Sequence record: KR014248
Direction: 5' to 3' (one strand)
DNA length: 64,000 nt
Source: Escherichia phage vB_EcoM_AYO145A
Shown here: positions 2,296 through 26,381 of the stretch, one piece after another
Layout: every line of letters starts with the position of its first letter
How positions within the stretch are numbered: position 1 is the stretch's first letter
Position numbers and translations under genes: made by a program
The notes under the pieces: model-generated
What the model was told of the DNA's origin: nothing
What the model saw: only the letters and a program-made list of their open reading frames with translations
The model's database searches: none

Positions 2296-2330
2296 ATTTG
2301 ACAAGGGGCTTCAAAGCCCCTTAGAATAAC
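2296..2330 (+). promoter_or_regulatory. sigma70-like promoter with palindrome in spacer (TTGACA-N18-TAGAAT)
   Basis: TTGACA followed by hairpin AAGGGGCTtcaaAGCCCCTT then TAGAAT, about 40 nt upstream of the rIIB start. Confidence 0.45.
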
Positions 2331-2371
2331 CTCACAAAATGATTTATTAACTAACAAGAGAGAGTAACAAG

Positions 2372-3481
2372 ATGACTACTAAAACTAAAGCACAGATTGA
2401 CGCAGAAATTTACAAACTGGTTAAAGAAGGCAAGCTGACTAAAACAGCTATTGCACAGAAGTTCAATACTTCAACCCGTTCAGTTGGTCGTGCTGTAGAG
2501 CGTCATGAAGCAACCTTAAAGGGTAAGAAAAAGGCAGCTTCGACACCAGCTACGAAGACTTTGAAGCAAGTTGCTAAGACCTTTAAGAAGAAAGCTGGCA
2601 AACCAGTTGAAAAGGTCGTTAAAGACGCTGTACAGAAAGCTCCAGTAAATAAACTGCATGAAGCTATGCAGAAAGATGACAAGATTGAGTACATGATTAC
2701 TGGTGACTCTGTAATTATGACTTACGGTTCAGAGTCTGAAATTGTTGAATCTACTCATCCGAACTATCAAGAGATTGTAGTTCATGTTGTGAAAGGTGAG
2801 TTTAAGAAAGCCTTTGAACTGATGAACATTCGTAAGTCTATCGAAAACTTCACTCAGGGTGCTATCACAATCAAAGGTGACAAACTATTCTACGGTGCTG
2901 TTGAGATGCGTTCTACTCTGGTTGACCGTATTCTTCACATGATGAAGACTGGAGATAAAGGTTTTGAACGCCTTGTAATGTTCTTTGAAAAACTGATGGA
3001 AAACCCATCTAAAGATTCTGTAGAACAACTTTGGGGCTTCGTATCTCACCTTGATGTTGAAATTGATGAAGAAGGCTACATCATTGGTTGGAAGAAAGTA
3101 TCTACTCGTGAAGGCAAGCTGGTTGACTCCCACACCTACAGAGTACCTAATGATTTAGGTAACATTGTAGAAATGCCACGTTGGATGGTTGATAATAACC
3201 GTAACGTGACTTGCTCTCAAGGTCTTCATGTTGGTGCTTGGGATTATGTTCGTTGCTTCTCAGGTGATACAATTCTGAAGGTTCGTGTCCATCCACGAGA
3301 TGTTGTATCTGTTCCGACTGATTACAACGATATGAAGATGCGTTCATCCCGTTATGAAGTTGCAGCAATCGTTGATAATCAACGTAAAGTGCTGGAAGCA
3401 TGGGATGGTAAGACTGAAGCTTTGCATGTCATCGTTGGCACTGCTGGAGAACTCATCTCCCAACGTAAACGTGAAATCTAA
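2372..3481 (+). CDS. rIIB: rIIB-like protein
   Basis: 369-aa ORF directly downstream of rIIA; C-terminal VHPRDVVSVPTDYND region matches my recollection of rIIB; synteny. Confidence 0.6.
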   Translation: MTTKTKAQIDAEIYKLVKEGKLTKTAIAQKFNTSTRSVGRAVERHEATLKGKKKAASTPATKTLKQVAKTFKKKAGKPVEKVVKDAVQKAPVNKLHEAMQKDDKIEYMITGDSVIMTYGSESEIVESTHPNYQEIVVHVVKGEFKKAFELMNIRKSIENFTQGAITIKGDKLFYGAVEMRSTLVDRILHMMKTGDKGFERLVMFFEKLMENPSKDSVEQLWGFVSHLDVEIDEEGYIIGWKKVSTREGKLVDSHTYRVPNDLGNIVEMPRWMVDNNRNVTCSQGLHVGAWDYVRCFSGDTILKVRVHPRDVVSVPTDYNDMKMRSSRYEVAAIVDNQRKVLEAWDGKTEALHVIVGTAGELISQRKREI

Positions 3482-3499
3482 TAAGTAATTTCTTAAAAG

Positions 3500-3528
3500 G
3501 CTGCTTCGGCGGCCTTTTTATTTGTATT
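3500..3528 (+). terminator. rho-independent terminator
   Basis: AGGCTGCttcgGCGGCCT hairpin followed by TTTTTATTT, just after the rIIB stop. Confidence 0.6.
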
Positions 3529-3580
3529 TTGTGCAGAGTGCTGTATAATTGTTGTCACGATAAACTAAACAGGAGAACCA

Positions 3581-4129
3581 ATGAAGAAGTTGATTCTAGG
3601 TTTGTGCTTAATGTTTACAGCACACTTATCTTATGCAGTTGACTGCCCAGAGCTATCAATTAGCCAAAAAGTAAACATGTTAAAAGCTTACCAGTATGGT
3701 GAGAATAACATGGGCAAAGGTTGGGGTATCACTCTAGCTGCTATAGCCTTACAAGAGTCAGAGTTAGGTCTGAAGGTAGAGAATAAAAAGACACACGATT
3801 ATGGTATTTTCCAGAATCACTTGAAGACTGTTGTAAAGCGTAACAAAATTAGCCCTAATGTGGCTAAAAAGAAACTCTTAAGAGACTTTGATTATGCTGC
3901 GAAGGAAACTCACAAAGAGCTTGAGTTTTGGACGAAGGTACATGGTCAACCAAAGTCAAAGAAGACTTTACAAAAAGTTTTAGCATCATATAATGCTGGG
4001 TATTCGTACAAAATTCCTAAAGCTAAGAAATACTCTCAAGATGTCTATAACAATATGAAAGTTATTGCTCAATGTGAATTTGCAACAAACATTTCTAAGG
4101 TAAATCATGAAAAAATTAAGAAAGTCTGA
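3581..4129 (+). CDS. secreted lytic transglycosylase (SLT domain)
   Basis: N-terminal signal peptide MKKLILGLCLMFTAHLSYA; SLT motifs AIALQESELG (catalytic Glu-Ser) and SYNAGYSY. Confidence 0.6.
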   Translation: MKKLILGLCLMFTAHLSYAVDCPELSISQKVNMLKAYQYGENNMGKGWGITLAAIALQESELGLKVENKKTHDYGIFQNHLKTVVKRNKISPNVAKKKLLRDFDYAAKETHKELEFWTKVHGQPKSKKTLQKVLASYNAGYSYKIPKAKKYSQDVYNNMKVIAQCEFATNISKVNHEKIKKV

Positions 4130-4802
4130 TGAAGTCCTGTGTCATGCTTACGACTTGCATCCTCATGAGTTAGGTCTTGATTCCTGTGTATGGACTCCAG
4201 AACAGTGTAGGGATTTTGAAGATACTGCAAGAGAAGTTGTATGTTCACTTGAAGAGTTCCACACATCAGAACCAATTGTGAACGTTGTGGACAAAGAGAC
4301 TGGACAATCTATAGGTGTAAGACGTGACAGCTTAGTCATAGTCAATAAAGACCTTGTAGAAAAAGGTAACCTTATCTTAGCAGACATTGATGGTGTTCTT
4401 ACAAATTTTAATCACGAAGATTACTCAACGGAATTGATTGATGGGTCATTTTCACAGTACACTAATTTGCTTGACTCTGTAAGTGCAAAGCCAACGTATG
4501 TTTTCAATATCATTGATGCAATTGCTAATCATGCTGCCATTGGACTCTTGACAGCTAGAGGTGAATCTCAGAGAATCCCTACTGAGATGTTTTTAAGGCA
4601 TTACATAGAGCATGATTACATGCTTTTTATGCGTGGTTTTGGAACTAACTCTATAAATGCAGAAAGTTTGAAAGTGAGGATGATTCAGTCTTGCATTCTT
4701 CCTTACTTTAATATAGTATGCTTTATAGAAGATACAGAGAAGAATGTTCAGAAGGTAAACAGAATCCTTCCACACATTAAAACCATGTTAGTTAAACATT
4801 GA
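4107..4802 (+). CDS. HAD-like hydrolase, possible nucleotidase
   Basis: 231-aa ORF; LILADIDGVLT resembles HAD motif I (DxDGT/V), but the motif sits unusually far from the N-terminus. Confidence 0.35.
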   Translation: MKKLRKSDEVLCHAYDLHPHELGLDSCVWTPEQCRDFEDTAREVVCSLEEFHTSEPIVNVVDKETGQSIGVRRDSLVIVNKDLVEKGNLILADIDGVLTNFNHEDYSTELIDGSFSQYTNLLDSVSAKPTYVFNIIDAIANHAAIGLLTARGESQRIPTEMFLRHYIEHDYMLFMRGFGTNSINAESLKVRMIQSCILPYFNIVCFIEDTEKNVQKVNRILPHIKTMLVKH

Positions 4803-5278
4803 GAGAAGAACTTATGAACAATATCATTACGGTAGCACTGGACGATACGGCAAACAAATCTGAAGTAGTTCGTAAAATGATTCAAGGTAACTTTGAAGGT
4901 AAAATTTTCCGTGCTGTTAATGTAAAAGCTGATGGTAGCATTCGTGAATATCGTGCATTGTTGAACGTTAAGAAGCACGTAAAAGGTGTTGGTTCAACGA
5001 CTGCACACAAAGAAAACCTGATGACTATCTATGATATGGGTAAGGCTTCAGAGTTAGGTGCTGAAGGTATCGTTAAAGAAGGTGCTCCGTATCGCTCTTT
5101 CAATCTGGAAACTGCTCTTATGCTTTCCTTTACAAGTGGTTCCAAAACAATCACTTATCTCTTTACTGATGCTGCAACGGTATCTGCTATTAAGGATAGC
5201 ACTGTCAAAGCTGGCGTAGTTGCTGCTGCAAAAGCTTCTTCGATGGCTGCGAATATCCTTGCTAAAGTCCTCGGTTAA
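4799..5278 (+). CDS. hypothetical protein
   Basis: 159-aa ORF in co-directional gene string; the start may be the ATG at 4814. Confidence 0.5.
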   Translation: MREELMNNIITVALDDTANKSEVVRKMIQGNFEGKIFRAVNVKADGSIREYRALLNVKKHVKGVGSTTAHKENLMTIYDMGKASELGAEGIVKEGAPYRSFNLETALMLSFTSGSKTITYLFTDAATVSAIKDSTVKAGVVAAAKASSMAANILAKVLG

Positions 5279-5290
5279 GGTTAAGATACA

Positions 5291-5312
5291 GGCTCCTTCG
5301 GGAGCCTTTTTC
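5291..5312 (+). terminator. rho-independent terminator
   Basis: GGCTCCttcgGGAGCC hairpin followed by TTTTT. Confidence 0.65.
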
Positions 5313-5330
5313 ATTTCAGGAGATTGTTAA

Positions 5331-5678
5331 ATGACATTTAAAGAGTTTTGTCAAGCTACTTTCATAATTGTTTTCTTAGTTGGGGCAGGTGTCTGGGGAG
5401 GATACTCTTACAGAGACTACCAAGTTGCTGAAACTGAGCTAAATAATGAGAAACTAATAAGTGTTGCCAAAGATGCTTATCAGGAAGGTTTAGCCACACT
5501 CAGCACCAATTACAAAAATGATTTGAAAGACGTGCTTGCTAAGAATAAGCATACAAAAGAGGTACTAACGTATGAAAAGACTAAGCCAGAGTTTTATAAT
5601 GTTTGTGTTACTGATAATTATGTCAGGGTGTTCAACGAACAAAGTGAACAGTACATTCAAAAACTCCCAAGTAAGTGA
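5331..5678 (+). CDS. i-spanin-like membrane protein
   Basis: 115 aa; N-terminal hydrophobic TM segment (FIIVFLVGAGVWGG) then a polar/coiled region; its 3' end overlaps the next lipoprotein ORF in another frame. Confidence 0.4.
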   Translation: MTFKEFCQATFIIVFLVGAGVWGGYSYRDYQVAETELNNEKLISVAKDAYQEGLATLSTNYKNDLKDVLAKNKHTKEVLTYEKTKPEFYNVCVTDNYVRVFNEQSEQYIQKLPSK

Positions 5679-8322: not shown

Positions 8323-8351
8323 GAAACTTCGTAGGATATTCACAATAGACT

Positions 8352-8398
8352 AAGCCTTTCTTATCTGGTAAATTTTTCAGGTAAGGAGGGCTTTTTCA
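8352..8398 (+). terminator. imperfect hairpin plus T-run
   Basis: AGCCTTTCTTATCTGG ... CAGGTAAGGAGGGCT followed by TTTTT. Confidence 0.4.
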
Positions 8399-8590
8399 TT
8401 TCAGAATTGTGCAGGTATATTTCTATAGAGAAATCTGTAGAGAAAATTTTGAACTCCAAAGAGAAAATTCATTTTCAAACTGTGCAGGTAATCTCCAAAG
8501 ACCTTTTTCATTTTCAAAACGTGCAGAGAAAAATCAGGTCGGGCAAGAAAAATCATTTTAGAATTGTGCAGGTAGGTGGGTGCAGGTGGG
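8397..8590 (+). repeat. four direct repeats CATTTTCARAAYTGTGCAGGTA
   Basis: copies at about 8397, 8470, 8509, 8554, plus GGTGGGTGCAGGTGGGG; non-coding. Confidence 0.6.
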
Positions 8591-8779: not shown

Positions 8780-8842
8780 TTGCATCAACGGGGAGGGAAT
8801 GACCTTCCCCACTAAATAAAGTCCTAAACTGGAGATTCAAAA

Positions 8843-9223
8843 ATGAAATACCGTGCACCTAAATTCATCAACAAAGACAACTTTCGCAACGCACTGGAGA
8901 AGTCACTTGATGAAAATTTTAAAGGTAATGTTATTGTTGTTCACTCGTTTAATTTTAAGTATGATGTAAACGGGAATAGAATCAACCATTACACGGCAAC
9001 CATGTTAGATGGTACACTTTCAAGTGAAAAAGCCATTTTACATGCACTTGCAGGACGTGGTAAAAACCTGATAAGATGCGATAAGAGACGTTATCAGGGT
9101 GGCGCATATGGTTATGATGATGCTGTTTATCATCTTGAAAATATGGGCTATTCAGTGGAAAAAGCTGGAGTGTCTCAAATAATCGGCAGTGACGGCTATG
9201 TGACAATTTTCAAAATTAACTGA
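8843..9223 (+). CDS. hypothetical small protein (leader-cassette gene 1)
   Basis: 126-aa ORF with type A leader. Confidence 0.6.
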   Translation: MKYRAPKFINKDNFRNALEKSLDENFKGNVIVVHSFNFKYDVNGNRINHYTATMLDGTLSSEKAILHALAGRGKNLIRCDKRRYQGGAYGYDDAVYHLENMGYSVEKAGVSQIIGSDGYVTIFKIN

Positions 9224-9311
9224 TAAAGTACTTTACAAGGGGCTTATAGTTCGATAAAGTAAGCCCCAGATAAAGAGCTTTACCACTAAATCCTAAATTG
9301 GAGATTCAAAA

Positions 9312-9569
9312 ATGGCTATTATCAAAAACGTTGTAATTCCTGCAAAAACTCGTGATGACGCTCGCGTTATGGCTAAAAAGTTATGCGGGAAAGTGGTTGA
9401 CAACGGAAAAACATCTGCTGTAAGATGGGGTGTAAAGGCTGATAAACAACTAACCTTAAAACGCAGTTCAAACAACCTTTTTAAAGGTGTAAAATCACTC
9501 GGTAAAGTGAACGTCTTTACCAAAAAAGGCTATAAAATGCACTTATCATTAACTGGCAATTTAATCTGA
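9312..9569 (+). CDS. hypothetical small protein (cassette gene 2)
   Basis: 85-aa ORF with type B leader. Confidence 0.6.
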   Translation: MAIIKNVVIPAKTRDDARVMAKKLCGKVVDNGKTSAVRWGVKADKQLTLKRSSNNLFKGVKSLGKVNVFTKKGYKMHLSLTGNLI

Positions 9570-9657
9570 TAAAGTACTTTACAAGGGGCTTAAAAGTTGA
9601 TATCTTAAGCCCCAGATAAAGAGCTTTACCACTAAATCCTAAACTGGAGATTCAAAA

Positions 9658-10170
9658 ATGAAAACTGTAGATGCTACCTTTGAAGTTGTAAAAGAAAAAT
9701 TCACCATTATTTATGAAGCTGTCAATTGCTTTGAAGCAAGCCATAGCCTTGATAATTGGGAGTTTACAGATGACCATCAAGGCGGCGTGACGATTAAAAA
9801 TCCTAACTATCAGCGTAATGAATTTAAATATGCAATCCCTTTGCATTACAGCCTTAAACAGCTTTCAAGTGACTATGCAAAACAAGGCCGCGATAACCCA
9901 TCGAAAGAGGCTTACACGAGCTTACAGAAAGAACTAGAAAGAGATTTAGAGGCTTCAGAGTATAACCTTGCCGCGAAAGTTGTGGATGCAAACGGTAGCA
10001 CGGTTTTAGAAAGTTTTTATCTTGGTTATGCTTTCGATTGGTGCTATCGTGACGGCGATGATTTAGAGGATAGACTAAAAGAAGAGGTGAACAACGCAGA
10101 CGCAGAATCTGAAGTTTTAGAACGTTTGGAAGCATTAAAAGATTCAGTGATGAATATCTTTAAGAACTAA
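9658..10170 (+). CDS. hypothetical protein (cassette gene 3)
   Basis: 170-aa acidic ORF with type B leader. Confidence 0.6.
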   Translation: MKTVDATFEVVKEKFTIIYEAVNCFEASHSLDNWEFTDDHQGGVTIKNPNYQRNEFKYAIPLHYSLKQLSSDYAKQGRDNPSKEAYTSLQKELERDLEASEYNLAAKVVDANGSTVLESFYLGYAFDWCYRDGDDLEDRLKEEVNNADAESEVLERLEALKDSVMNIFKN

Positions 10171-10261
10171 ATAGATTTCTTTACACGGGGCTAACAAGCG
10201 GATATGATAGCCCCAGATAAAGAGATTTATCAAATTAACCCTTAAACTAGGAGATTCAAAA

Positions 10262-10558
10262 ATGAAATTATCAAATAAAGTTAGGGAAAACCTTAGCAAA
10301 TTACTCAACAAAATTGATTTTATAGAGACATCAAGGAATAGTCATGATGTTATGGAATGGTTACACGGCAAAATAAAAGGCCGTCGTGTAGTGATTTGCT
10401 TATGGAATAGTTGCAGGGAGTATAAAAAACCTGTATTGCAAGTCAATATCTATGATGATACTTTTAAAAGTCCTGTAAAGTCTAAAAGTGATTTATTAGA
10501 ATCCTATGAGATAACTGTAAATGGCAAAGTATCACGTAAAGAGGAAACACCATGTTAA
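10262..10558 (+). CDS. hypothetical small protein (cassette gene 4)
   Basis: 98-aa ORF with type B-like leader. Confidence 0.55.
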   Translation: MKLSNKVRENLSKLLNKIDFIETSRNSHDVMEWLHGKIKGRRVVICLWNSCREYKKPVLQVNIYDDTFKSPVKSKSDLLESYEITVNGKVSRKEETPC

Positions 10559-10884
10559 TGACTGGTATCACTGCAATCATTGCCATTTTCGCGCTATATA
10601 AGGCATATAAAGCCTATAATCTAGCAAACAAGGCAATCACACAGCAGGTTAGTAATAGCCTTGTAGAGAGCTTTCTAGGACGTTTAAGTGATGAGCAAAT
10701 AAAGCGGCTAGAGATGAGCTTCAGATATAAAGCGAAAACCTATCAGATAAGTGACATCTTCAAAGATAATTTTCAGCTTGTCGATGATTATAACTCTCTG
10801 ATAAATGCTTTAAATATCAGTGACTTAAAAGACTATTACGCTGTAATTGTCCAAGAATTGAACAAACGAAAAAATTTCTCTTGA
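10552..10884 (+). CDS. hypothetical membrane-associated protein
   Basis: 110-aa ORF, start overlaps upstream stop; N-terminal hydrophobic segment. Confidence 0.5.
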   Translation: MLMTGITAIIAIFALYKAYKAYNLANKAITQQVSNSLVESFLGRLSDEQIKRLEMSFRYKAKTYQISDIFKDNFQLVDDYNSLINALNISDLKDYYAVIVQELNKRKNFS

Positions 10885-10974
10885 TTTTGGTTTTTAAAAC
10901 AAGTAAATTACTAATCAACGGGGAGGGAATGACCTTCCCCACTAAGCAAAGTCCTTAAACTAGGAGATTCAAAA

Positions 10975-11247
10975 ATGTATACTACTAACAACGGTCGCAC
11001 CTTAAACGTAACCCTGCGCCACTATGTGAACGGTGTAATGCACTTCGAGGATTTACAAGCTGAACAACACATTCTGAATTGGCAACTTGCAGGACTGCAA
11101 AAAACTGCTACAGGATACGGGAAAAAGATTCCAACCAGTTGGAAAGTATACTACGAAGGCCGTTTGCGCAGAATTTATCAAGATGTATACAGCAACAGCG
11201 CAACAAGTTACATTATAGTAAAAGGCAAAAAACTGCATTTAATGTAA
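10975..11247 (+). CDS. hypothetical small protein (cassette gene 6)
   Basis: 90-aa ORF with type A leader. Confidence 0.6.
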   Translation: MYTTNNGRTLNVTLRHYVNGVMHFEDLQAEQHILNWQLAGLQKTATGYGKKIPTSWKVYYEGRLRRIYQDVYSNSATSYIIVKGKKLHLM

Positions 11248-11333
11248 AGTACTTTACAAGGGGCTTATAGTTCGATAAAGCAAGCCCCAGATAAAGAGCT
11301 TTACCACTAAACCCTAAATTGGAGAACTTAAAA

Positions 11334-11738
11334 ATGGCTATTAATAACCGTGAATTATCAATCTTAAAAGCACGTTTGACCGTCAATCGAATCAATGTTA
11401 TCACATCATCAGCACCGGACGAGACATTGCACAACATTATCGGAAAGATTCAAAGCGTTATTTTAGACGTTGAAAACGTAAAAAGCTCATTGGCTGACGT
11501 TGCAGCAGGTATCACACTAGATGGCGCACAATATGAAATGTGCGACATGTTAGGCAAATCAAAGGTAATGAATAAAGAGCTTGATTTAAAGATGTTCCGA
11601 TTTGCTGTTAAAGTATGGCTATCCGTTGAGTATGACGCTAATTTTGCAATCGCTGATTTCTTTGCCACTTGGTTACAACGTAATTTGACAAATCACGATT
11701 TTCGTGGTATCTGCGATGCAATTTATGCAGAACTTTAA
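11334..11738 (+). CDS. hypothetical protein (cassette gene 7)
   Basis: type B leader then GGAG-N9-ATG at 11334; the ORF-track start 11319 is a TTG inside the RBS. Confidence 0.55.
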   Translation: MAINNRELSILKARLTVNRINVITSSAPDETLHNIIGKIQSVILDVENVKSSLADVAAGITLDGAQYEMCDMLGKSKVMNKELDLKMFRFAVKVWLSVEYDANFAIADFFATWLQRNLTNHDFRGICDAIYAEL

Positions 11739-11838
11739 AAATTTTTGTTGACACTGGTTTTTAGATAGGCTAAATTGCACATCAACGGGGAGGGAATGAC
11801 CTTCCCACTAAATAAAGTCCTAAACTGGAGATTCTAAA

Positions 11839-12042
11839 ATGGCTATTATTAACGGCTTAACCATTGAAACTACACACATCAAAGATATCAAAGTTGGTGA
11901 TATAGTCCTTTCCCACGGCGTAGAAAAAACTGTCACTGCAAAGGATATCAAAGAGGATTCTTTCATGGGTAGGACTCTTTTCGGTGATTCTTATTGCTTA
12001 GGTTACCTTGCAGTGTTAAAAGTTGTCAAAAATAACAAATAA
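11839..12042 (+). CDS. hypothetical small protein (cassette gene 8)
   Basis: 67-aa ORF; type A leader preceded by TTGACA promoter-like box. Confidence 0.55.
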   Translation: MAIINGLTIETTHIKDIKVGDIVLSHGVEKTVTAKDIKEDSFMGRTLFGDSYCLGYLAVLKVVKNNK

Positions 12043-12127
12043 AGTACTTTACAAGGGGCTTATAGTTCGATAAAGTAAGCCCCAGATAAAGAGCTTTACC
12101 ACTAAATCCTAAACTGGAGATTCAAAA

Positions 12128-12691
12128 ATGAAATGCTATCACGGTACTACCATCAAAAACTTTGTAAACCTGCTGAATGGTGGCGACAAGCCGGAAGGAA
12201 TCTGGAACTGCTCCTACATGGACGATTGTTTTTACGTTTACCCAATGAGCAAGATTATCAAAACGGAATGTCTGGAAGATGAGGAAGATTCTTACATTCG
12301 TGAACGCTGCATTCAAAACGCCTTAGAGTCTGGACTTATTACGGCAGCTTTCCAAATGGAAACGCAGGACGTAATTGTCATTGAAATGGATATCCCAGAG
12401 GAAGAACTAGAGGACGATTATTCTTGCGACAACATGAGCGATATCGCCAGCTTTACCGGATACTTTGATAAAGATTGGATTATCGGCATTCACTCCGCGA
12501 AATTTAGTGCGATGTATGCACCTTTCTTTTTACCTGATACAACTAACCGCAATTTAGGCTATGTTGACGATGATTTGTTAAGTCTGGCGAAAATTGTACA
12601 GAATAGCGGTGATAGTTCCGTGTTTTGTGACTTGCTGGATAAAATCACGGCAAACATCACAGAACGCAATTTAAAAGACTTTTTAGGTTAA
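12128..12691 (+). CDS. hypothetical protein (cassette gene 9)
   Basis: 187-aa acidic ORF with type B leader. Confidence 0.6.
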   Translation: MKCYHGTTIKNFVNLLNGGDKPEGIWNCSYMDDCFYVYPMSKIIKTECLEDEEDSYIRERCIQNALESGLITAAFQMETQDVIVIEMDIPEEELEDDYSCDNMSDIASFTGYFDKDWIIGIHSAKFSAMYAPFFLPDTTNRNLGYVDDDLLSLAKIVQNSGDSSVFCDLLDKITANITERNLKDFLG

Positions 12692-12754
12692 TCAGTACAA
12701 AGACACCAACTTCCAACTTAAGGCCCATACAGGGCCATTTAAAGGGCTTAAATC

Positions 12755-12988
12755 ATGCTTACAACCGTTTATCTTATCCTTTCTATTTGTAACGGTCATT
12801 CATGCGATTTTAAAGGGCTTGAGGAGTTTACAGGGAGTAAAGAAAATGCTGTTCAAGTGTGCCAGATAGCAAGGCAAGACTATCCCGCCAGTGATGATAT
12901 ACAATGTTACTTTAAGACAGAAGATGAAGACGGCATCTATTTTGACAGCGTAGATGGTCAGTATGAAATTATCATTGAAAAAGACTAG
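12755..12988 (+). CDS. hypothetical small protein
   Basis: 77-aa ORF; different leader (GGCCCatacaGGGCC hairpin). Confidence 0.5.
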   Translation: MLTTVYLILSICNGHSCDFKGLEEFTGSKENAVQVCQIARQDYPASDDIQCYFKTEDEDGIYFDSVDGQYEIIIEKD

Positions 12989-13078
12989 ACAAGCCTGATA
13001 AAAATCTGTAAATTGTCAATCAACGGGGAGGGAATAACCTTCCCCACTAAATAAAGTCCTAAACTGGAGAATCTAAAA

Positions 13079-13420
13079 ATGGCTTATGTAACCGTAATTA
13101 CCGATAAAGCTGGCGCATCTTGGTCAACTCAGGTCAGTGATAAGATGTCACCCATGCAGTGCCTAAAATACTTTGAACAGTGGAATAAAGGCGAGGACAC
13201 AAGCCCCTTTCAAGTGATGCAGATTATCCATGTAGACAACGAAGGGAATAAAACGACGCTGAATAGTGAGTACTATGCAAGCCGTTTTGAAACGAGAAGT
13301 AAAACAATGAAACTTTTACGTGAATCCGGTTATGTCCATATCGCCGCGTTAATCTGGGATGACCTGCTAAAAAGTCAGCGTATCAGCTATGTAAAACCTG
13401 AAAAAATATTCATCAGTTAA
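13079..13420 (+). CDS. hypothetical protein (cassette gene 11)
   Basis: 113-aa ORF with type A leader. Confidence 0.6.
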   Translation: MAYVTVITDKAGASWSTQVSDKMSPMQCLKYFEQWNKGEDTSPFQVMQIIHVDNEGNKTTLNSEYYASRFETRSKTMKLLRESGYVHIAALIWDDLLKSQRISYVKPEKIFIS

Positions 13421-13639
13421 TCAATAACTTACAAAAAACTTTCAAAAAAGTATTGACAACGCCCCTTGACATTGGTAACTTTGTTCGAGGGGGTTTATCT
13501 AAAAGGGATTAACTTAAAAGATTCTTTATAGATAAGCTTAAAAAATTGCTTGCAATCAGCTAACAAAACAAGTAAATTACTAATCAACGGGAGGGATAAC
13601 CTCCCCACTAAGTAAAGTCCTTAAACTAGGAGATTCAAA

Positions 13640-14170
13640 ATGAACAAGTTCAAAGCTATCAACTTCATTCGTTCAAATGCTGTAATGTCAAAGCCTGTTA
13701 AAGATACCTATGAATTTCGTTGCAATGGTGTACACTTTGCAACCATCACTAAATCAGAAAACGGGGCTTATTACGTCCATCGTCGTAATGTTTCTACTGT
13801 TGTAGTTTCTCATTTTATGCAAGCTGTCGCGGAACTTCTCCCGATGTTTTTAGGTCTTTACTTAGATGAGTGTAAAAACGTTCACAACCACGTTAAAAAC
13901 CTTTTAAACGGTTATAAAATGGCTTATGAACGTTCTATCAAGTCACTAAACAAGTTTTACAACGCACCTAAAAATACTGTATCAATAGCCTATGCTGCAA
14001 ATGGTGAGATGGTAAACTTATCCAATGTGGAAGAAATCAAGCTGCATGATTTACGCCCTAGTGGTTACTCTAAGACTCTCGGTGAAGGTTTAACGTTCAA
14101 TATCAAGAACTTAGAAAAAACTTTAAAAGATATTGAAAAAGATATTGACGAGACAATCAAAAGTCTGTAA
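13640..14170 (+). CDS. hypothetical protein (cassette gene 12)
   Basis: 176-aa ORF; type A-variant leader; upstream TTGACA boxes. Confidence 0.6.
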   Translation: MNKFKAINFIRSNAVMSKPVKDTYEFRCNGVHFATITKSENGAYYVHRRNVSTVVVSHFMQAVAELLPMFLGLYLDECKNVHNHVKNLLNGYKMAYERSIKSLNKFYNAPKNTVSIAYAANGEMVNLSNVEEIKLHDLRPSGYSKTLGEGLTFNIKNLEKTLKDIEKDIDETIKSL

Positions 14171-14236
14171 ATTGTCAATCAACGGGGAGGGAATAACCTT
14201 CCCCACTAAATAAAGTCCTAAACTGGAGTTATCAAG

Positions 14237-14500
14237 ATGGAAAACGTAGAATTAACCACACTTTTACAAATCGCAACCGACAAAGAAAACGTAGCATTAT
14301 TACACCGCATTGAAAGCGATTTGTTCAATGGTGAAATCATCAAAGAGTCTTATGAAGTTGTAGGATTCAAAGACGGTAAAGCGTTTGGATTCTTTGACCT
14401 CGAAAAAGGCAACGCTGTTACAAATTACGATGTTTTATCTTGTGAGATTCTTACAAAATACAACGAAAAAAGGCTTGCAACATACGCCAACATGCAGTAA
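14237..14500 (+). CDS. hypothetical small protein (cassette gene 13)
   Basis: 87-aa ORF with type A leader. Confidence 0.6.
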   Translation: MENVELTTLLQIATDKENVALLHRIESDLFNGEIIKESYEVVGFKDGKAFGFFDLEKGNAVTNYDVLSCEILTKYNEKRLATYANMQ

Positions 14501-14565
14501 ATTACTCATCAACGGGAGGGATAACCTCCCCACTAAGTAAAGTCCTTAAACTAGGAGATTCAAAA

Positions 14566-14814
14566 ATGGCAACTATCCGCGCAATTGTAAATTCTTATGG
14601 CTGCTACACTCTGGACGTTAAATTTGATATCGGTGGAACTGATGAATGTTTTTCATTAGTGAAGACAGTTATCAAACAAGTTATCCCAGATTATAACCCT
14701 ACTGATGACTTCTGGAAAGATGCAGTAAAAGAGGCGTTGAACGATGAATATCATTACCATTATTGGGGTGATTTGATTGTCTCCCTGTACTACAATAAAC
14801 AAGGTTACAACTAA
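14566..14814 (+). CDS. hypothetical small protein (cassette gene 14)
   Basis: 82-aa ORF with type A-variant leader. Confidence 0.6.
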   Translation: MATIRAIVNSYGCYTLDVKFDIGGTDECFSLVKTVIKQVIPDYNPTDDFWKDAVKEALNDEYHYHYWGDLIVSLYYNKQGYN

Positions 14815-14852
14815 TCGACGCAACGGGGCTAAATAGCCCCAGATACCTTTAT

Positions 14853-14879
14853 AGCCCCTTTCTCATAGGGGCTTTTTTA
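14853..14879 (+). terminator. rho-independent terminator closing the small-gene array
   Basis: AGCCCCtttctcatAGGGGCT followed by TTTTTT. Confidence 0.7.
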
Positions 14880-14880
14880 C

Positions 14881-16470
14881 GTCTATCCAATCCTTATACA
14901 ATCCCTTTCCCTTTCCTTTCCAGAATCTTATCAGACCTTAAAAGCAATAACTCTATAGTCCACTCTATAACCTTTTATCAAATCAACTTAAATATAAGCC
15001 CATAACCCGAAAGGGAAGGGCAACCATTTAAACGCTCTATAAAGCTCTATAACAGCCTTATCAACCTAACTTAAGGGATTGCATTAACTCACCCTAAAAA
15101 GCTCTTTATAAAGCTTCCTAGAGCCTTAAAAGAATCTTATAAGGGTGTAAGCTTTATCATCTCGTTAGTTCCTTGTGAACTACTAAAAAGGGCTTGTTAG
15201 TGTCTTAAAAGTATGTTATAGGGGCTATAAAGTTACTTCAAAGTTACGTAAAAGAGGCTATAAAGTTACGTAAATGCTAGCCCCCTTAACATTCTCTTAA
15301 CAAATTCTTAACAATCCCTACATAGTTATGCTTGCTAGAGACTTGTTAGCCCCTTGTTAAATCTCTGTTAAAACCACGTAAAAGCCTTGTAAGAGTCTTT
15401 GACATAGCCTTTAAAGCTCCTGTAAAGCCCTATAAAAAGGTATCTGTACAGTTGGGGTGTAATTACTAGGAAGAGGTTTAAGAGAGCTTACAAAGAGCTA
15501 TAGAGAGCTTTTAAGAGGTATGTTTAGAGAATCACTAAGAAAGAGAGGGAACGATAAGAAAGAGATAGTGACCATGTTAATAGCTTGTTAAAAAGATTAA
15601 ATACTTGTTAGAAACTTGTTAATTATCTTAACAAAATAACTCTTAAAAATTAACTTGTTAGCTCTTGTTAGTCATCTGTTAAGCCTCTGTAAAGACTATG
15701 TATTGACTGTTAAGAACTTGTTACAGCCTTGTTAGTTCTGTTAAGAATCTGTTAAGACCTCTGAAGAGATGTTAAGAGCTTGAGAGAGTTGTTAAGAGAT
15801 TGTTAAGGATATTTTAAAATTCTGCAAAGGGGGTGTTACAGGGATGTTAAGGGCTACCAAGCAGATATACATCTTCTACAGATATTTTTGAGTTCCTTCA
15901 AAGACCCTAAAAAATGACTTGATAGTCCTATTTTATAAAAATTTTAAAATTCTGAATAATTACCTATACAGTCTTTTAAAAATACAGGTAGAAACAGGCT
16001 TATAAGATACCTTGTTAGTACCGTGTTAGACCTTGTGAGATAAGGTCTGTAAAGATATTCCTGTTAAGTTTGTTAAAACAGTCTATATAGAGGCTTAGTA
16101 ATACCTAGTGAACACCTATAGAGAGTGTCATAGCTGACATAGAGATTAAGAGGTGTATAGGAGCTTCTAAGAGGGTGTAGAGGAATGGTTAAGGTGATTG
16201 TATAGGTTGTTAAGAGGGCTTGTTAGAAGAGTGTTTAGAAGGGTTATACAGAGGGGCTATTAAGACCACTAGATAGTTACTAAGATACTATATAGTACTA
16301 TATAACTATATAGAGAGTAAGATTAAGAAGGTTGTTAAGAAGGATAGATATTTTGTTCACATATGATGGTGACCCAGAGGTTGGGACAACCGATGAAATT
16401 TTATAAAAAATATAAATTTCGTAAATTTTACTCAATAAAAAGCCCCCAATTAAGGAGGCTCTTAAGATAT
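14881..16470. repeat. 1.6-kb non-coding region with about 30 short YTTGTTAR / GTTAAGAG repeats and AT-rich tracts
   Basis: no ORF of 60 aa or more on either strand; many CTTGTTAG/CTGTTAAG/GTTAAGAG copies; duplicated CTATAAAGTTACGTAAA; AT-rich blocks near 15900 and 16400. Confidence 0.7.
16436..16466 (-). terminator. rho-independent terminator (minus strand)
   Basis: reverse complement reads AGCCTCCttaattGGGGGCT followed by TTTTTATT, just downstream of the 16472 gene end. Confidence 0.5.
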
Positions 16471-16471
16471 T

Positions 16472-21073: not shown

Positions 21074-21087
21074 AGTTTTCTCCTTAG

Positions 21088-21114
21088 AAAATAAAAAAGG
21101 CTCCCGAAGGAGCC
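21088..21114 (-). terminator. rho-independent terminator (minus strand)
   Basis: GGCTCCcgaaGGAGCC hairpin; on the minus strand it is followed by TTTTTTATTTTC. Confidence 0.6.
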
Positions 21115-21124
21115 TATGAAGATA

Positions 21125-21589
21125 TTACTTTGGATATACACTGTCAAGATAAATGTCAGCTTCCATTCTACGTCTGTTTTTCAGGCCGTTTGAAGTGACC
21201 TTCTTACCTTTGACTGTAACCTTGTTCCACCACTGCATAGCTTCTGCACAACCGACCTTATTACCAGCATTGTGGCGCTTGATAAATGTGGAATCCTGCA
21301 TAGCCGTGATACCAATGTTGTATGTTTCACTTACCAGTGCATCAAACTCATTCTGAGAAGTTGGAACCTTGATAGATTTGTTCACTGCTGCGACAAACTT
21401 TTCAACATCTGCAAGAAGATACTGTTCAGCCTGTTCAGCAGTAATTTTCATGCCCATCTTAACAGGTTTTCCGTCAATACGGATTGTACCATACCCGATT
21501 GTTGGGATTCCGGCAGAGTCTTCGTAAGCCTCTAACTTCAGACCTTCAAAGAACTTAATAGCTTCTAAACCTTTTCTTGAGAGTTGCAT
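21125..21589 (-). CDS. lysozyme (GH24, T4-lysozyme-like)
   Basis: 154 aa; N-terminal signature LEAIKFFEGLKLEAYEDSAGIPTIGYGT. Confidence 0.8.
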   Translation of the reverse strand: MQLSRKGLEAIKFFEGLKLEAYEDSAGIPTIGYGTIRIDGKPVKMGMKITAEQAEQYLLADVEKFVAAVNKSIKVPTSQNEFDALVSETYNIGITAMQDSTFIKRHNAGNKVGCAEAMQWWNKVTVKGKKVTSNGLKNRRRMEADIYLDSVYPK

Positions 21590-23090: not shown

Positions 23091-23137
23091 TAAATATCCT
23101 TATAAATAATTAAAGGGGCATCAGCCCCTATTCACAC

Positions 23138-23728
23138 TTAAGCTTTAGTCTTAAGTAGGTTCTTAAGTTTTTTAAGATTCATACTCTCATCAAACTTAAA
23201 ACCAAATCCATTGACATAATCAATGAACTCGGATTTCTTACTGAGTGACAATGCGTAACTCATATCAAAGTTCTTACTTGTTTCTGCGTCTGGACTAGAG
23301 TTCACATCAAATGAAATTTCTGTAGGTTCTTGCTTACTTTTCCTAATATTATCAACCAACAAGCATGTATAGTTTGCTGGATAGAAATTTACACTACCAT
23401 CAACGTAGCTGTACTTATTATTATGGATAAGGTTGGAAAATACCTTAAGGAATGTTTCTGAGTCGTGGCAAACAAGTTTGAATTGGCTGCTCTCTCCAAG
23501 CGCAACTAATGAGTACGGACTTTCACTATCAAAGTCATAATTTGGATTTGATGTTGTAACCGTCACACGCATTAGGTTATTGGCAATAGTCTTCTGCTTG
23601 AAAGAATTTGGAACATAGTGAAGACCTCTATCGCACTGATTAACTAATTCTTTTAATAGGTCATTTGCATACGGTGAATTAATTGATACAGAGCCATCAC
23701 TATTGTAATTAAAACTTACTGTTAACAT
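23138..23728 (-). CDS. hypothetical protein
   Basis: 196-aa ORF. Confidence 0.5.
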   Translation of the reverse strand: MLTVSFNYNSDGSVSINSPYANDLLKELVNQCDRGLHYVPNSFKQKTIANNLMRVTVTTSNPNYDFDSESPYSLVALGESSQFKLVCHDSETFLKVFSNLIHNNKYSYVDGSVNFYPANYTCLLVDNIRKSKQEPTEISFDVNSSPDAETSKNFDMSYALSLSKKSEFIDYVNGFGFKFDESMNLKKLKNLLKTKA

Positions 23729-23955
23729 TTTTCAGTTCTCCTGCGGTTTATAATTTTGCTGCAATAGAGAAACGAAGTAAACTCACTGGAAGAAACCACT
23801 AAGTGTTGTTCACTAGATTGAGCCATTGCCCTGAAATACATTCCAGTCAAAGCATCATAGTGACTATTCTTTCCAATTGAGGTTATATAGCCATGACTCT
23901 TTGCAGTTTGATATAAATCTATAATATCTGCGATTTCTAATTGGGAACTACACAT
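23722..23955 (-). CDS. hypothetical small protein
   Basis: 77-aa ORF. Confidence 0.4.
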   Translation of the reverse strand: MCSSQLEIADIIDLYQTAKSHGYITSIGKNSHYDALTGMYFRAMAQSSEQHLVVSSSEFTSFLYCSKIINRRRTEKC

Positions 23956-24119
23956 AGATAATCCTCTTGTCTTCTGTAATTTTGAAAGAACAGGTACAGA
24001 CCAATTTCAGAGGACGAATAGTAGATTAATTCTACCCTTTTTGATTCCTTACAGTGATTGGTATTCTTACCTTTCTTCGGTTTATTTGATTTTCTCATTA
24101 AGTCTCCTTTGTAGAACAA
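23937..24119 (-). CDS. hypothetical small basic protein
   Basis: 60-aa ORF. Confidence 0.35.
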   Translation of the reverse strand: MFYKGDLMRKSNKPKKGKNTNHCKESKRVELIYYSSSEIGLYLFFQNYRRQEDYLCVVPN

Positions 24120-24347
24120 GGCAGACCTACAGCTTTAAGTAAGATGGTACAGTAATCCATACAACAAGTCAAGAACTATTGCAAGTTAAAAAAGTTGTTG
24201 ACAAAGGACTTGACAAGGTGTAGGCTTATAAATACTTAGAAGATAACTTAAAAGGTTCCTCTAAAAAGGCTATTTAAACAGATATCTTTCTGGATATCTA
24301 TCTTTTATCTTAAAAGCCTTTTAAGAGGTCTTATAAGAGGCATACCA

Positions 24348-24719
24348 ATGAAAAACAGAACAAACAAAGGCCAGTTTAAAAAAGGCCAGTCTGGAAACCC
24401 ATCTGGAAGACCAAAAGGCTCTCGTAACAAAAGCTCACTCGTAAAAGCTCAACTGACCATTGATAATTCTGCTGAGTTCGCTGCAAAGCTGTTTGAGGCG
24501 ATTGTTACAAGGGACGCGGCTAAGCTTGCAGAGTTCGGGTTAAACACAGATGACGTAACCATCAAGAGTATGATTGAGGTCGGTAAAACTATCTTTACTC
24601 ACTCAGCAGGTGAGATGAAAGCACTTGCAGCAGACACTAAGAAGACTCCTGATAATGGTGGTCAACAACAGACAGATAACAAACCAACGTTCTCTGCTGT
24701 AGCGACTCTCAAAAAATAA
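24348..24719 (+). CDS. hypothetical protein with basic Gly-rich N-terminus
   Basis: 123 aa; KGQSGNPSGRPKGSRNK N-terminus. Confidence 0.5.
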   Translation: MKNRTNKGQFKKGQSGNPSGRPKGSRNKSSLVKAQLTIDNSAEFAAKLFEAIVTRDAAKLAEFGLNTDDVTIKSMIEVGKTIFTHSAGEMKALAADTKKTPDNGGQQQTDNKPTFSAVATLKK

Positions 24720-24731
24720 TTTTAAAAGGTG

Positions 24732-24768
24732 TTGACAGACTCTACAAAGTTGCTCTAAAGTCTGTCAC
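24732..24768 (+). promoter_or_regulatory. promoter TTGACA-N18-TAAAGT overlapped by a 9-bp inverted repeat
   Basis: TTGACAGACT ... AGTCTGTCA; -10 TAAAGT; upstream of the Ro60-like gene. Confidence 0.45.
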
Positions 24769-24800
24769 ATCAAACAACAAATGAGAGAAGAGAGTAAAAT

Positions 24801-26216
24801 ATGAGCGAATTATTTAAACATGCGCACCTTCATGCAGGTCGAACTGAAAATGGTGCTGTAAACCATACTTCATCAATGTCTGCTCTTGTAGACTTTTACA
24901 AAGCTGCTGGTTCTAGCCGTAGCAATGTAGGAATCTTACCAGACCTGTTCTACAAAGCTTTGCGTGAGGATGTTGATGTTGCAGTTCGTATTTTGCTTCA
25001 TATGCGAGATGTACGAGAAGGTATGGGTGAGCGTAAAGCTTTCCGAACTGTTTTACTTCAAGCGATTGAAGATAAAGTTTTAGAGCCTACGCAGGTTCTT
25101 CGCATTATGGATAAGATTGCAGAGCTTGGTCGTTTTGATGACTTCAAAATCTTCGTGGGTACTCGTTTCGAGACAGATGCCTTCAAACATTTAGAAGCAG
25201 CATTACTAGACCCTGCAACAGCAGGTTTGGCAGCTAAGTGGTTACCACGAGTCAAACCACGTCATAAGCAGTTTGTAAAACGTTTCTGCAAGTTTGCAAA
25301 CTTGAGTGAGAAAGAGTACCGCACACTGTTGTCTGCACTATCTGATACAGTTGAACAAAAAATCTCTGCTAATGAGTTTGGTAAGATTGACTACAGTAAG
25401 ATTCCTTCACTTGCTGCTGCACGTTACCAAAAACTCTTTAACCGTAAAGATGGAGAACGCTACAAAGCTTACATCGAGTCACTCTCAAAAGGTGAGGCCA
25501 AGATTAACGCTGGTGCTGTTTACCCATACGATGTGATTAAATCTATCAAGTATGGTAATGCAGATGTTGCTAATGAGCAGTGGAAAGCACTACCAAACTG
25601 GATGGTAGAAGGTGAAAACATCCTGTGTATGACTGATGTTTCAAGCTCAATGTCTTGGGTGAATCTTGGTTCAATCACTGCCCTTGATATTGGTGTATCC
25701 CTTGCCTTGTATGTAGCAGAACGCAATACAGGTTGTTTTAAGAATGAGTTAATGGTTTATTCAACAAACCCTCATTTCATCGAATTGAGTGGTGATTTAC
25801 GAAACCGTCATCGTCAGATAATGCGTCATGTTGAATATGGCTCAACTAACTTACAAGCAGCTTTTGACCGTATTCTTGAAATAGGCAAGAGAAACAACTT
25901 GACTCAGAAAGATATGCCAAGTAAGCTTATTATCTTCTCTGATATGGAGTTCAATCAGGTTGATGGAGCTAACGGTCGTACAAACTTTGAAGCAATTCAG
26001 AGTAAGTACAAAAAAGCTGGATATGAGATGCCACAACTGGTATTCTGGTACTTAGCAAACCGTAATGGTACTTGCGAAGTATCTGTTAAGGATAATGGTG
26101 TAGCAATGGTATCAGGGTTCTCTCCAGCCACTTTAAAAGCTCTGCTTGGTGGTGAGAAGTTTGACCCAATCAGCGTAATGCTCAAAGCAGTAATGATTGA
26201 CCGTTATATCTGGTAA
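24801..26216 (+). CDS. Ro60-like TROVE + vWA protein (Rsr-like)
   Basis: 471 aa; vWA MIDAS-like ILCMTDVSSSMSW and LIIFSDMEFNQ; central VYPYDVIKSI and C-terminal NG...GF..ATL resemble Ro60 as I recall it. Confidence 0.55.
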   Translation: MSELFKHAHLHAGRTENGAVNHTSSMSALVDFYKAAGSSRSNVGILPDLFYKALREDVDVAVRILLHMRDVREGMGERKAFRTVLLQAIEDKVLEPTQVLRIMDKIAELGRFDDFKIFVGTRFETDAFKHLEAALLDPATAGLAAKWLPRVKPRHKQFVKRFCKFANLSEKEYRTLLSALSDTVEQKISANEFGKIDYSKIPSLAAARYQKLFNRKDGERYKAYIESLSKGEAKINAGAVYPYDVIKSIKYGNADVANEQWKALPNWMVEGENILCMTDVSSSMSWVNLGSITALDIGVSLALYVAERNTGCFKNELMVYSTNPHFIELSGDLRNRHRQIMRHVEYGSTNLQAAFDRILEIGKRNNLTQKDMPSKLIIFSDMEFNQVDGANGRTNFEAIQSKYKKAGYEMPQLVFWYLANRNGTCEVSVKDNGVAMVSGFSPATLKALLGGEKFDPISVMLKAVMIDRYIW

Positions 26217-26234
26217 AAAGTTTTAAAAAGGGTA

Positions 26235-26263
26235 TTGACAATGTGTTTGATACCCTTTAATAT
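26235..26263 (+). promoter_or_regulatory. sigma70-like promoter (TTGACA-N17-TAATAT) inside the GGGTAT/ATACCC inverted repeat
   Basis: consensus boxes read by eye. Confidence 0.45.
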
Positions 26264-26325
26264 GTTCTACATAGAAACAAAATGAGAGCTTTTCTAAGAT
26301 ACTGAAAAATATTTTAAAAAAGTTC

Positions 26326-26355
26326 TTGACAACCACTAAAAAATAATGTTAAAGT
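26326..26355 (+). promoter_or_regulatory. promoter TTGACA-N18-TAAAGT upstream of the first tRNA
   Basis: TTGACAACCACT...AGTGGTT inverted repeat spanning the -10. Confidence 0.45.
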
Positions 26356-26381
26356 GGTTACATAGAGTTTGAAAAGTTTAT

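Follow-up and report, generated by a model that had tools for sequence, protein, structure and literature searches.

Cassettes that combine an early promoter with a stem-loop are known from T4-type phages, where promoter-early stem-loop (PeSL) elements have been described in RB49/phi1, T4/PST, and KVP40/nt-1 (PMC2839356, PMC4122927). In a PeSL, a sigma-70 promoter preceded by an AT-rich tract is combined with a stem-loop lying between or over the promoter boxes, and the element is bounded by a stop codon at the 5' end and by a ribosome-binding site and an ATG at the 3' end (PMC2839356, PMC4122927). These elements cluster in variable regions of orphan genes and are shuffled by recombination (PMC2839356, PMC4122927). 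Their promoter and terminator activity was shown by lacZ fusions for RB49/phi1, and circular excision products were detected by inverse PCR (PMC2839356). Here, we analyzed promoter-like sites overlaid by inverted repeats in a stretch of 64,000 nucleotides (nt) of Escherichia phage vB_EcoM_AYO145A (record KR014248), hereafter the window, whose coordinates are used throughout.

The best match of a 4-kb stretch of the window, among 305 phage records matched, was Escherichia phage EcoM2 (Felixounavirus, Ounavirinae; 98% identity), and the annotation of EcoM2 and the window have the same gene order. For phage Felix O1, the cores of the two repeated leaders that we call type B and type A were listed as 57-bp and 39-bp direct repeats, just five candidate promoters were found, and the passage through many terminators, the secondary promoters, and the temporal control were described as not understood (PMC3185647). 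In the literature searched, we found no promoter/hairpin description for Felix O1-like phages. The explanation toward which we lean, with modest confidence, is that these elements are composite host sigma-70 promoters overlaid on hairpin-forming repeats, in which the hairpin would act in read-through RNA and the repeated leaders would serve as portable homology.

Promoter-like sites overlaid by inverted repeats

A sequence-only reading of the window had noticed palindromes over several promoter-like sites and had proposed a phage-specific early promoter class, marked by a TAAAGT -10 hexamer and regulated through structure. The palindromes at four plus-strand promoters (2298, 24732, 26235, and 26326) were all present as it described, and the sequence confirmed the TTGACA-18-TAAAGT arrangement at 24732 and 26326. 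The single-copy sites are as follows.

2298 to 2327, plus strand: intergenic promoter-like site, TTGACA (2298-2303), 18-nt spacer, TAGAAT (2322-2327).
24710 to 24767, plus strand: UP-like tract (AAAAAATAATTTTAAAAGGTG), TTGACA (24732-24737), 18-nt spacer, TAAAGT (24756-24761).
26215 to 26263, plus strand: UP-like tract, TTGACA (26235-26240), 17-nt spacer, TAATAT (26258-26263).
26307 to 26359, plus strand: UP-like tract, TTGACA (26326-26331), 18-nt spacer, TAAAGT (26350-26355).
27746 to 27783, plus strand: TTGACA (27755), 17-nt spacer, TATAGT, with a 7-bp repeat, ATAAAGT (27746-27752)/ACTTTAT (27774-27780).
35085 to 35114, plus strand: intragenic TTGACA-18-TAAAGT, a third exact copy that the earlier reading had missed.
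58836 to 58882, minus strand: hairpin with a 13-bp and a 5-bp stem, its loop containing TTGACA (58863-58858).
60224 to 60253, minus strand: TTTACA, 18-nt spacer, TAAAGT; a doubtful promoter.

The repeated leaders include the following.

9224 to 9282, plus strand: type B copy 1, TTTACA (9232-9237), 17-nt spacer, TAAAGT (9255-9260).
9570 to 9628, plus strand: type B copy 2, TTTACA (9578), 17-nt spacer, TATCTT, with a 9-bp inner stem, GGGGCTTAA/TTAAGCCCC.
10171 to 10230, plus strand: type B variant copy 3, TTTACA (10180), 17-nt spacer, TATGAT, with inner stem GGGGCTA/TAGCCCC.
11245 to 11303, plus strand: type B copy 4, with a degenerate -10, TAAAGC (T6 lost).
11748 to 11806, plus strand: type A leader with promoter TTGACA-17-TAAATT (11748-11776).
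12040 to 12098, plus strand: type B copy 5, TTTACA (12048), 17-nt spacer, TAAAGT (12071).

RNA folding against shuffled sequence indicated that most of the repeats fold as hairpins, with z scores of -3 to -6. Measured from the last base of the -10, the 3' ends of the hairpins fall between -5 and +7 nt, and between -5 and +6 nt at the sites other than type B. At 2298, the spacer is filled by the hairpin AAGGGGCT-TCAA-AGCCCCTT (2303-2322; -14.2 kcal/mol, z -2.8). The site at 24732, upstream of a DUF2828/VWA gene, carries the 9-bp repeat TGACAGACT/AGTCTGTCA, with arms at 24733-24741 and 24759-24767 (-15.6 kcal/mol, z -3.5), and at 26235 the 9-bp repeat AAAGGGTAT/ATACCCTTT, with arms at 26227-26235 and 26250-26258, holds the -35 in its loop (-12.6 kcal/mol, z -3.45). 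The second of two tandem promoters before the transfer RNA (tRNA) cluster, at 26326, is overlaid by a 7-bp repeat, AACCACT/AGTGGTT (arms 26331-26337 and 26353-26359). The repeat spanning the promoter at 27755, which corresponds to P45 of the Felix O1 paper (PMC3185647), had escaped the earlier reading.

On the minus strand, the repeat reported near 58860 is real, but it is 13 bp long (AAATAAGCTATAA/TTATAGCTTATTT) and not 8 bp; the hairpin (-17.8 kcal/mol, z -4.3) comprises an A-tract, the stem, and a U-rich 3' tail holding TATTTT/TATACT. The site near 60250 has the TAAAGT and the 18-nt spacer ascribed to it, but its -35 is TTTACA and not TTGACA. We rejected it as the promoter of its downstream gene, since the GGAG ribosome-binding site follows the end of its -10 by only 3 nt. 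Upstream of both minus-strand sites (58880-58940 and 60270-60330), we also observed a paralogous G-rich segment with GGYAGTAGCC...AAAAATCTRCC after it, and a short stem in this segment (GGCAG/CTGCC versus GGTAG/CTACC) differs between the two by a compensatory change.

The type B leader reads as one long imperfect palindrome, TAAAG-TA-CTTTA-CAA-GGGGCTTA-loop-TAAGCCCC-AGA-TAAAG-AG-CTTTA, whose three stems (TAAAG/CTTTA, CTTTA/TAAAG, and GGGGCTTA/TAAGCCCC) measure 5, 5, and 8 to 9 bp and are parted by 1x1 and 3x3 internal loops. The second stem contains the -35 (TTTACA); the -10 occupies the apical loop plus the first base of the 3' arm, and the inner stem stops 7 nt past the -10, at the expected transcription start. 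The 5' end is the stop codon TAA of the upstream gene, contained in (A)TAAAGTAC, and the 3' end is GGAGATTCAAAA-ATG. Copy 1 folded (9221-9288) with -22.4 kcal/mol (z -5.0) and copy 3, which has a continuous 13-bp outer stem, folded (10171-10240) with -24.2 kcal/mol (z -6.2); copy 4 is probably a weak or inactive promoter copy. The arrangement TTTACA-17-TAAAGT, previously ascribed to the type B leaders as such, was found in two of the five copies (9255 and 12071), but the others have TATCTT, TATGAT, and TAAAGC. The predicted start of the type A leader at 11748 precedes a G-run/C-run hairpin, GGGGAGG..CCTTCCC (11787-11806). The 5' flank of the 2298 site, TAAAGTAT-TTGACA-AGGGGCTT, resembles the type B leader, the two having a common 5' half, TAAAGTAY-TTKACA-AGGGGCTT. 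Like type B, both 2298 and 24732 are bounded by an upstream stop codon and, on the 3' side, by a ribosome-binding site and ATG.

The coincidence of promoters and repeats is real and non-random. As a baseline, we searched 55-nt windows of the window genome for a perfect stem with a loop of 3 to 22 nt and found stems of at least 7, 8, and 9 bp in 5.8, 1.4, and 0.27% of them, respectively. Among 13 independent intergenic promoter candidates, with the type B family counted once, stems of at least 7 bp occurred in 6 to 7 and stems of at least 8 bp in 4 to 5 (binomial p ~1e-5 or lower); 58863, whose left arm lies outside the fixed stem-test window, is included only in the higher counts. The motif search that the sequence-only reading had suggested, carried out across the window, returned four occurrences of TTGACA-N16-19-TAAAGT versus 0.16 expected. 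Generic promoter-consensus matches were not enriched in scans of the window (70 versus 57 expected, 47 versus 46, and 63 versus 52), so that a consensus match alone carries no weight.

TTTTAAAAR-N2-8-TTGACA occurred three times versus 0.02 expected, at 24732, 26235, and 26326, and these three sites have in common the upstream sequence TTTTAAAA(A)G, which resembles the full UP-element consensus. AAAAAGTTG precedes TTGACA at 24198, 60645, 27755, and 13453, and the A/T-rich upstream part of type B is only TAAAGTAC. TATAAT was strongly depleted in the window (16 on the plus and 12 on the minus strand versus ~52 expected), and TAAAGT was enriched on the plus strand (59 versus 35 expected). Promoter-like sites adjoining true terminators at 21147(-) and 19076(-) were excluded, as they have the -35 within a coding sequence and RNA from the predicted start would retain the terminator hairpin.

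Conservation of promoter elements and hairpins in related phages

Related loci were compared around the DUF2828/VWA gene (26 loci), the phosphatase gene (19 loci), and the minus-strand sites (17 loci). At 24732, TTGACA and three bases of the -10 (T1, A2, and T6) were invariant in 27 loci with a spacing of 17 to 18 nt, and 14 of the 17 spacer columns varied. The orthologous -10 in Mooglevirus-like genomes is TAGAGT at 24732 and TATAGT at 26326; at the 24732 orthologues of Kolesnikvirus and Salmonella phage PMBT37 it is TACCTT or TAAATT. The -35, the -10 (TAGAAT or TAAAAT), and the stem of 2298 were conserved across 19 related loci, two of which have a C.A mismatch in the stem. Among 52 distinct copies of type B, CTTTACA and the TA of the loop were invariant at 17-nt spacing, the next three bases were free, and the T6 was conserved in at least 90%. 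These copies use at least 12 different -10 hexamers, including TAAAGT, TATCTT, TACCTT, TAACTT, TACAGT, TATAGT, TATGAT, TAAGAT, TAGGAT, TAGAGT, TAGTAT, and TACCAT.

An invariant TA and T6 around a free middle looks like the footprint expected of a sigma-70 -10 element, and the -35 and -10 hexamers were found at the 16- to 18-nt spacing of sigma-70 promoters. The elements thus read as ordinary sigma-70 architecture, with an UP-like A/T tract, (G)TTGACA or TTTACA, a 17- to 18-nt spacer, and TAnnnT, and as predicted sigma-70 promoters they are well supported; their activity and start sites would follow from this architecture. The proposed early class holds insofar as the sites form a coherent set of strong, probably early promoters, but TAAAGT is not its mark. 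That hexamer appears to be one acceptable TAnnnT among others, because the orthologues and the type B copies use different ones, and a phage-specific class defined by it lacks support.

The symmetry of the palindromic sites could mean that they are bidirectional promoters, the mirror at 24732 giving antisense RNA into the DUF5681 gene. A scan did report this mirror (minus strand, 24768-24739, GTGACA-18-TAGAGT), and its -10 becomes TAAAGT in one locus (L023). Nevertheless, the mirror -10 is lost in loci that keep the core of the repeat, where it reads TAGAGC (L018/L019) or AGAACC (L020-L022), and the other sites lack plausible mirror hexamers. We rejected a bidirectional promoter at 24732, as its mirror -10 is not conserved, and gave hardly any credence to the general proposal.

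Other promoter-like arrangements were observed. The intragenic site at 35085 lies inside a 66-nt stretch that is invariant among relatives differing by 12 to 16% overall, a conservation equaled in just 3% of the gene's 45-nt windows, and it is a possible internal promoter. A 12-bp palindrome, AGTTATATAACT, follows its TTGACA-18-TAAAGT (35085-35125). Tandem TTGACA hexamers 12 to 13 nt apart, each set after AAAAAAGT, occur in the divergent intergenic region (24198-24232) and before the gene at 13640 (13453-13490), and they may be overlapping alternative promoters.

As for the hairpins, the arms at 24732 varied at 3 of 18 columns and the loop at 14 of 17, and the internal arm changes are G.U-compatible on the plus strand. 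Conservation extends to arm positions that belong to neither hexamer, namely GACT following the -35 and CTGTCA following the -10. In Erwinia phage vEam_W_28 (Kolesnikvirus), the orthologue after the DUF5681 gene has the arms ACAGATAC/GTATCTGT, which differ from those of the window by two compensatory pair changes (C:G to T:A and T:A to A:T), and PMBT37 retains 6 bp with one G.U. In Kolesnikvirus and PMBT37 (L103:2270-2400 and L104:2890-3020), we also observed that this orthologue is followed by a structured tRNA-like RNA of ~130 nt with a GGTTCGAATCCC T-arm, in a position that is occupied in the window by the DUF2828/VWA gene. At 26235, the arms show a single change, to U.G, and conserve the GGGTAT/ATACCC core, and the loop varies at 5 of 14 columns; at 58863, the arms are invariant and the flanks variable in 17 relatives. 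The repeat at 26326 is broken in Mooglevirus-like loci, which have a new 6-bp repeat, AACACT-7-AGTGTT, inside the spacer. A reading of this variant as a compensatory C:G to A:T change was rejected, since counting the pairs gave two mismatches plus the new spacer repeat.

For type B, RNAalifold on the 52 distinct copies gave a consensus of 16 pairs in three stems with one covarying pair (GC in 38, UA in 7, and broken in six); a shuffle control was uninformative for the inner stem. Across these copies, 79 G.U cells were counted versus 3 A.C cells, and U.G is fixed in most Mooglevirus copies. When distinct single-transition variants of all sites were counted once, 15 were of the G.U type and 4 of the A.C type (p ~0.01). 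When one base of a Watson-Crick pair undergoes a transition, the mismatch is G.U if read on one strand and A.C if read on the opposite one, and the asymmetry therefore points to the sense strand and hence to hairpins that function in RNA.

The same data bear on the proposal of structure-dependent promoter regulation, in which supercoiled DNA would extrude a cruciform or hairpin and thereby mask or unmask the -35 and -10. The arms do overlap or abut both hexamers, and among the window and its homologues in L033-L051 the 4-nt loop of 2298 (2311-2314) reads either TCAA or the reverse complement, TTGA, an inversion inside the palindrome which suggests that the DNA sometimes folds or recombines. 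Loops of 11 to 21 nt, however, are energetically unfavorable for cruciform extrusion, and such loops are present in type B, 24732, 26235, 26326, 27755, and 58863. Moreover, G.T-type variants are common and fixed and A.C variants are rare, which counts against a cruciform because both strands would fold and one of the two hairpins would carry the A.C. We consider regulation at the DNA level decidedly improbable, and an RNA-level role of the hairpins is likelier than structure-dependent regulation of the promoter itself.

Inverted repeats over promoters can also be operators, here for dimeric phage or host regulators that would switch the early promoters. Palindromes over the -35, the -10, and +1 have the classical operator layout, and in type B the palindrome TAAAG-N2-CTTTA is present twice, over the -35 and near +5 to +16. 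TAAAG-N2-CTTTA was nevertheless rejected as an operator, as 8 of its 9 matches lie inside the repeated leader, where they are each other's pairing partners in the long hairpin. The arms differ at each independent promoter (TGACAGACT, AAAGGGTAT, AACCACT, AAGGGGCT, ATAAAGT, and AAATAAGCTATAA), so that no operator is common to them; the half-sites are 4 to 21 nt apart, and orthologous arms change by compensatory or wobble substitutions and keep no single sequence. An operator function appears improbable.

With respect to the kind of RNA signal, no T-run follows the stem in type B, 2298, 24732, and 26326, and 26235 and 58863 resemble intrinsic terminators in part. Type B and 58863 fit in silico the irregular helix of ~20 bp with internal loops of RNase III substrates, and the other hairpins are only 12 to 13 bp long. 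Rfam 15 reported only tRNAs at gathering score across the whole window, and no match for the hairpins with E up to 1 in 8800-14900 or 24100-26400. A weak Rfam tRNA match at 27988-28066 (31.7 bits), which ARAGORN did not call, may be a tRNA pseudogene in the cluster.

Repeated leaders and small-gene cassettes in the variable region

The type A and type B leaders are located in one region of the genome.

8813 to 14814, plus strand: variable region of ~14 small genes, all annotated as hypothetical.

This region holds five type B and ~7 type A leaders, and nearly all of its genes have such a leader upstream, ending in the shared ribosome-binding region CTGGAGATTCAAAA-ATG. Type B is present in 3 to 10 copies per genome in Felixounavirus and Mooglevirus-like genomes; single 15-mer matches in unrelated contigs look like chance. 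In a comparison of 19 genomes, small-gene clusters 9, 10, 15, 16, 17, 25, 26, and 36 were present or absent between leaders, and cluster 25 was found at two different positions in two genomes. Genomes without cassette 15 have at the junction one chimeric leader, whose 5' part matches the upstream leader and whose 3' part matches the downstream leader. The single-copy sites 24732, 26235, 26326, and 58863 are conserved, lie outside the variable region, and are not shuffled. In Felix O1, the variable-region open reading frames (ORFs) 13, 16, 20, 21, and 22 peak at 5 min postinfection in the reverse transcription-PCR table (PMC3185647).

The composite promoter/hairpin explanation would connect these observations as follows. 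Each element would consist of an A/T-rich UP-like tract, TTGACA or TTTACA, a 17- to 18-nt spacer, and TAnnnT, overlaid on an inverted repeat. Because the hairpin does not extend past the predicted start, RNA from the embedded promoter would lack it, and only read-through RNA from upstream would fold it. In that RNA, the hairpin could be a 3'-end, attenuation, processing, or stabilizing signal for the upstream message, while the embedded promoter would restart transcription for the next gene. We infer for the hairpins an RNA-level role such as attenuation, RNase III-type processing, or 3' stabilization, and the repeated versions, types A and B, would act by recombination as portable homology for the gain, loss, and relocation of cassettes of small genes. 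A bolder form of this explanation is possible but doubtful: the Ounavirinae might possess an undescribed family of mobile, dual-coded elements of ~60 nt, each a sigma-70 promoter as DNA and a hairpin of ~20 bp as read-through RNA, with RNase III-type cleavage or binding insulating each small early gene and recombination between copies driving the turnover of orphan genes.

Several points weigh against the composite explanation. The inner stem of type B, with 97.8% of pairs formed and seven G.U variants, shows no compensatory change, and the outer-stem pair 6-58 is broken in several copies; copies of a repeat family are, moreover, not independent observations. Strand-biased C-to-T mutation could partly explain the G.U excess, as GC skew is positive on this strand. 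The folds at 26326 (-6.7 kcal/mol, z -1.1) and 27755 (z -0.9) are no more stable than shuffled sequence. Most hairpins have no U-tract and hence do not qualify as canonical intrinsic terminators. Where intergenic spacers are short, lack of room by itself could make hairpin and promoter overlap with no functional coupling. In the literature searched, no mapped transcription start or RNA 3' end was found for any Felix O1-like phage.

Some of these points would suit a functionless by-product, in which pairing would arise because UP tracts are A-rich and -10 regions T-rich and because ACTTTA, in the -35 region, complements TAAAGT, and in which the repeated leaders would inherit their palindromes by duplication. 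The nonsignificant folds at 26326 and 27755 and the lack of compensatory change in the type B inner stem fit this idea, as do the outer pairs at 26235 and 58863, which are A-tract against T-tract, and the CTTTA/TAAAG complementarity that links TTTACA-type -35s with TAAAGT -10s. However, at 24732 and 26235 the loops drift but arm positions beyond the hexamers stay the same, the Kolesnikvirus arms changed in a compensatory manner, and in Mooglevirus a new repeat replaces the lost one. The stem enrichment (~1e-5) and the strong asymmetry of G.U over A.C likewise argue for more than a by-product, which we regard as unlikely.

The gene order of the window is as follows.

Plus strand: early block, with a run of small hypothetical genes at ~8800 to 14800.
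Next: ORF-free region of 1.66 kb, followed by a minus-strand block.
Near 24100 to 24350: divergent region.
After the divergent region: DUF5681 gene and DUF2828/VWA gene.
Then: 25 tRNA genes, followed by structural genes.

For the gene downstream of 24732, Pfam reported only DUF2828, DUF7788, and VWA, which have no bearing on the mechanism. The ORF-free region (14815-16471), between convergent gene blocks, contains dense (C)TTGTTA(A/G)/TGTTAAG repeats at 11-nt spacing and an inverted TTAACA array at 15286-15315. This iteron-like pattern may represent a replication origin or another protein-binding array. Elsewhere, three tandem copies of CTTTTTCATTT(T)CA...GTGCAG(G/A) lie within 8323-8557, after a terminator at 8352-8393, and the similar TTTTGTGCAGAG precedes TATAAT at ~3545 (region 3530-3550). 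This motif is distinct from the hairpin promoters and is possibly a non-sigma-70 (middle or late) promoter signal.

Comparison with known systems

Strong UP-element promoters include rrnB P1 and the early promoters of T4 and T5. The sites at 24732, 26235, and 26326 are like them in having distal AAAAA(T)TTTT and proximal AAAAA tracts directly before TTGACA, but they differ in the 18-nt spacer, the weaker TAAAGT -10, and the hairpin over the core. In phage T7, RNase III hairpins lie between the early genes, their cleavage leaves a protective 3' hairpin, and they are not known to contain promoters. Type B resembles these sites in that early polycistronic RNA would contain it as an intercistronic helix of ~20 bp interrupted by internal loops; unlike them, it has a promoter inside, the other hairpins here reach only 12 to 13 bp, and cleavage is hypothetical.

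The 58863 hairpin, with its A-tract, stem, and U-rich tail, is like a Rho-independent terminator, in contrast to type B, 2298, 24732, and 26326, which have no U-tract. The Felix O1 terminators t42/t43 are the 26235 hairpin, gggtattgacaatgtgtttaatacccttt (PMC3185647, Table 2); the TTGACA in its loop and the TAATAT in its tail went unnoticed in that study. For annotation, this is a warning that a hairpin called a terminator may also contain a strong promoter. The promoter/hairpin reading also offers a testable transcription map for a phage genus that is widely used in typing and biocontrol of Salmonella and E. coli.

The closest likeness in layout is that to PeSLs. In both, a sigma-70 promoter and an AT-rich upstream tract are combined with a stem-loop, often of the G-run/C-run type, that lies between the boxes, over either of them, or just downstream, and in both the repeats occupy a variable region of small genes, where genes gained or lost between close relatives have the elements at their borders. 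Judged at the sequence level, the type A and type B leaders have every PeSL feature that can be tested there. The present elements differ in belonging to phages of the subfamily Ounavirinae, and in the form of type B, a single three-stem hairpin of ~60 nt in which a stem holds the -35 and the apical loop holds the -10; we claim no sequence homology. The single-copy sites share with PeSLs the overlay of promoter and hairpin but not the mobility; 24732, 26235, 26326, and 58863 lie outside the variable region. Overall, the best reading, by analogy, is that the elements are promoter/stem-loop cassettes analogous to PeSLs, which would extend the cassette-shuffling model beyond T4-type phages and suggests a convergent building of plug-in early-gene modules.

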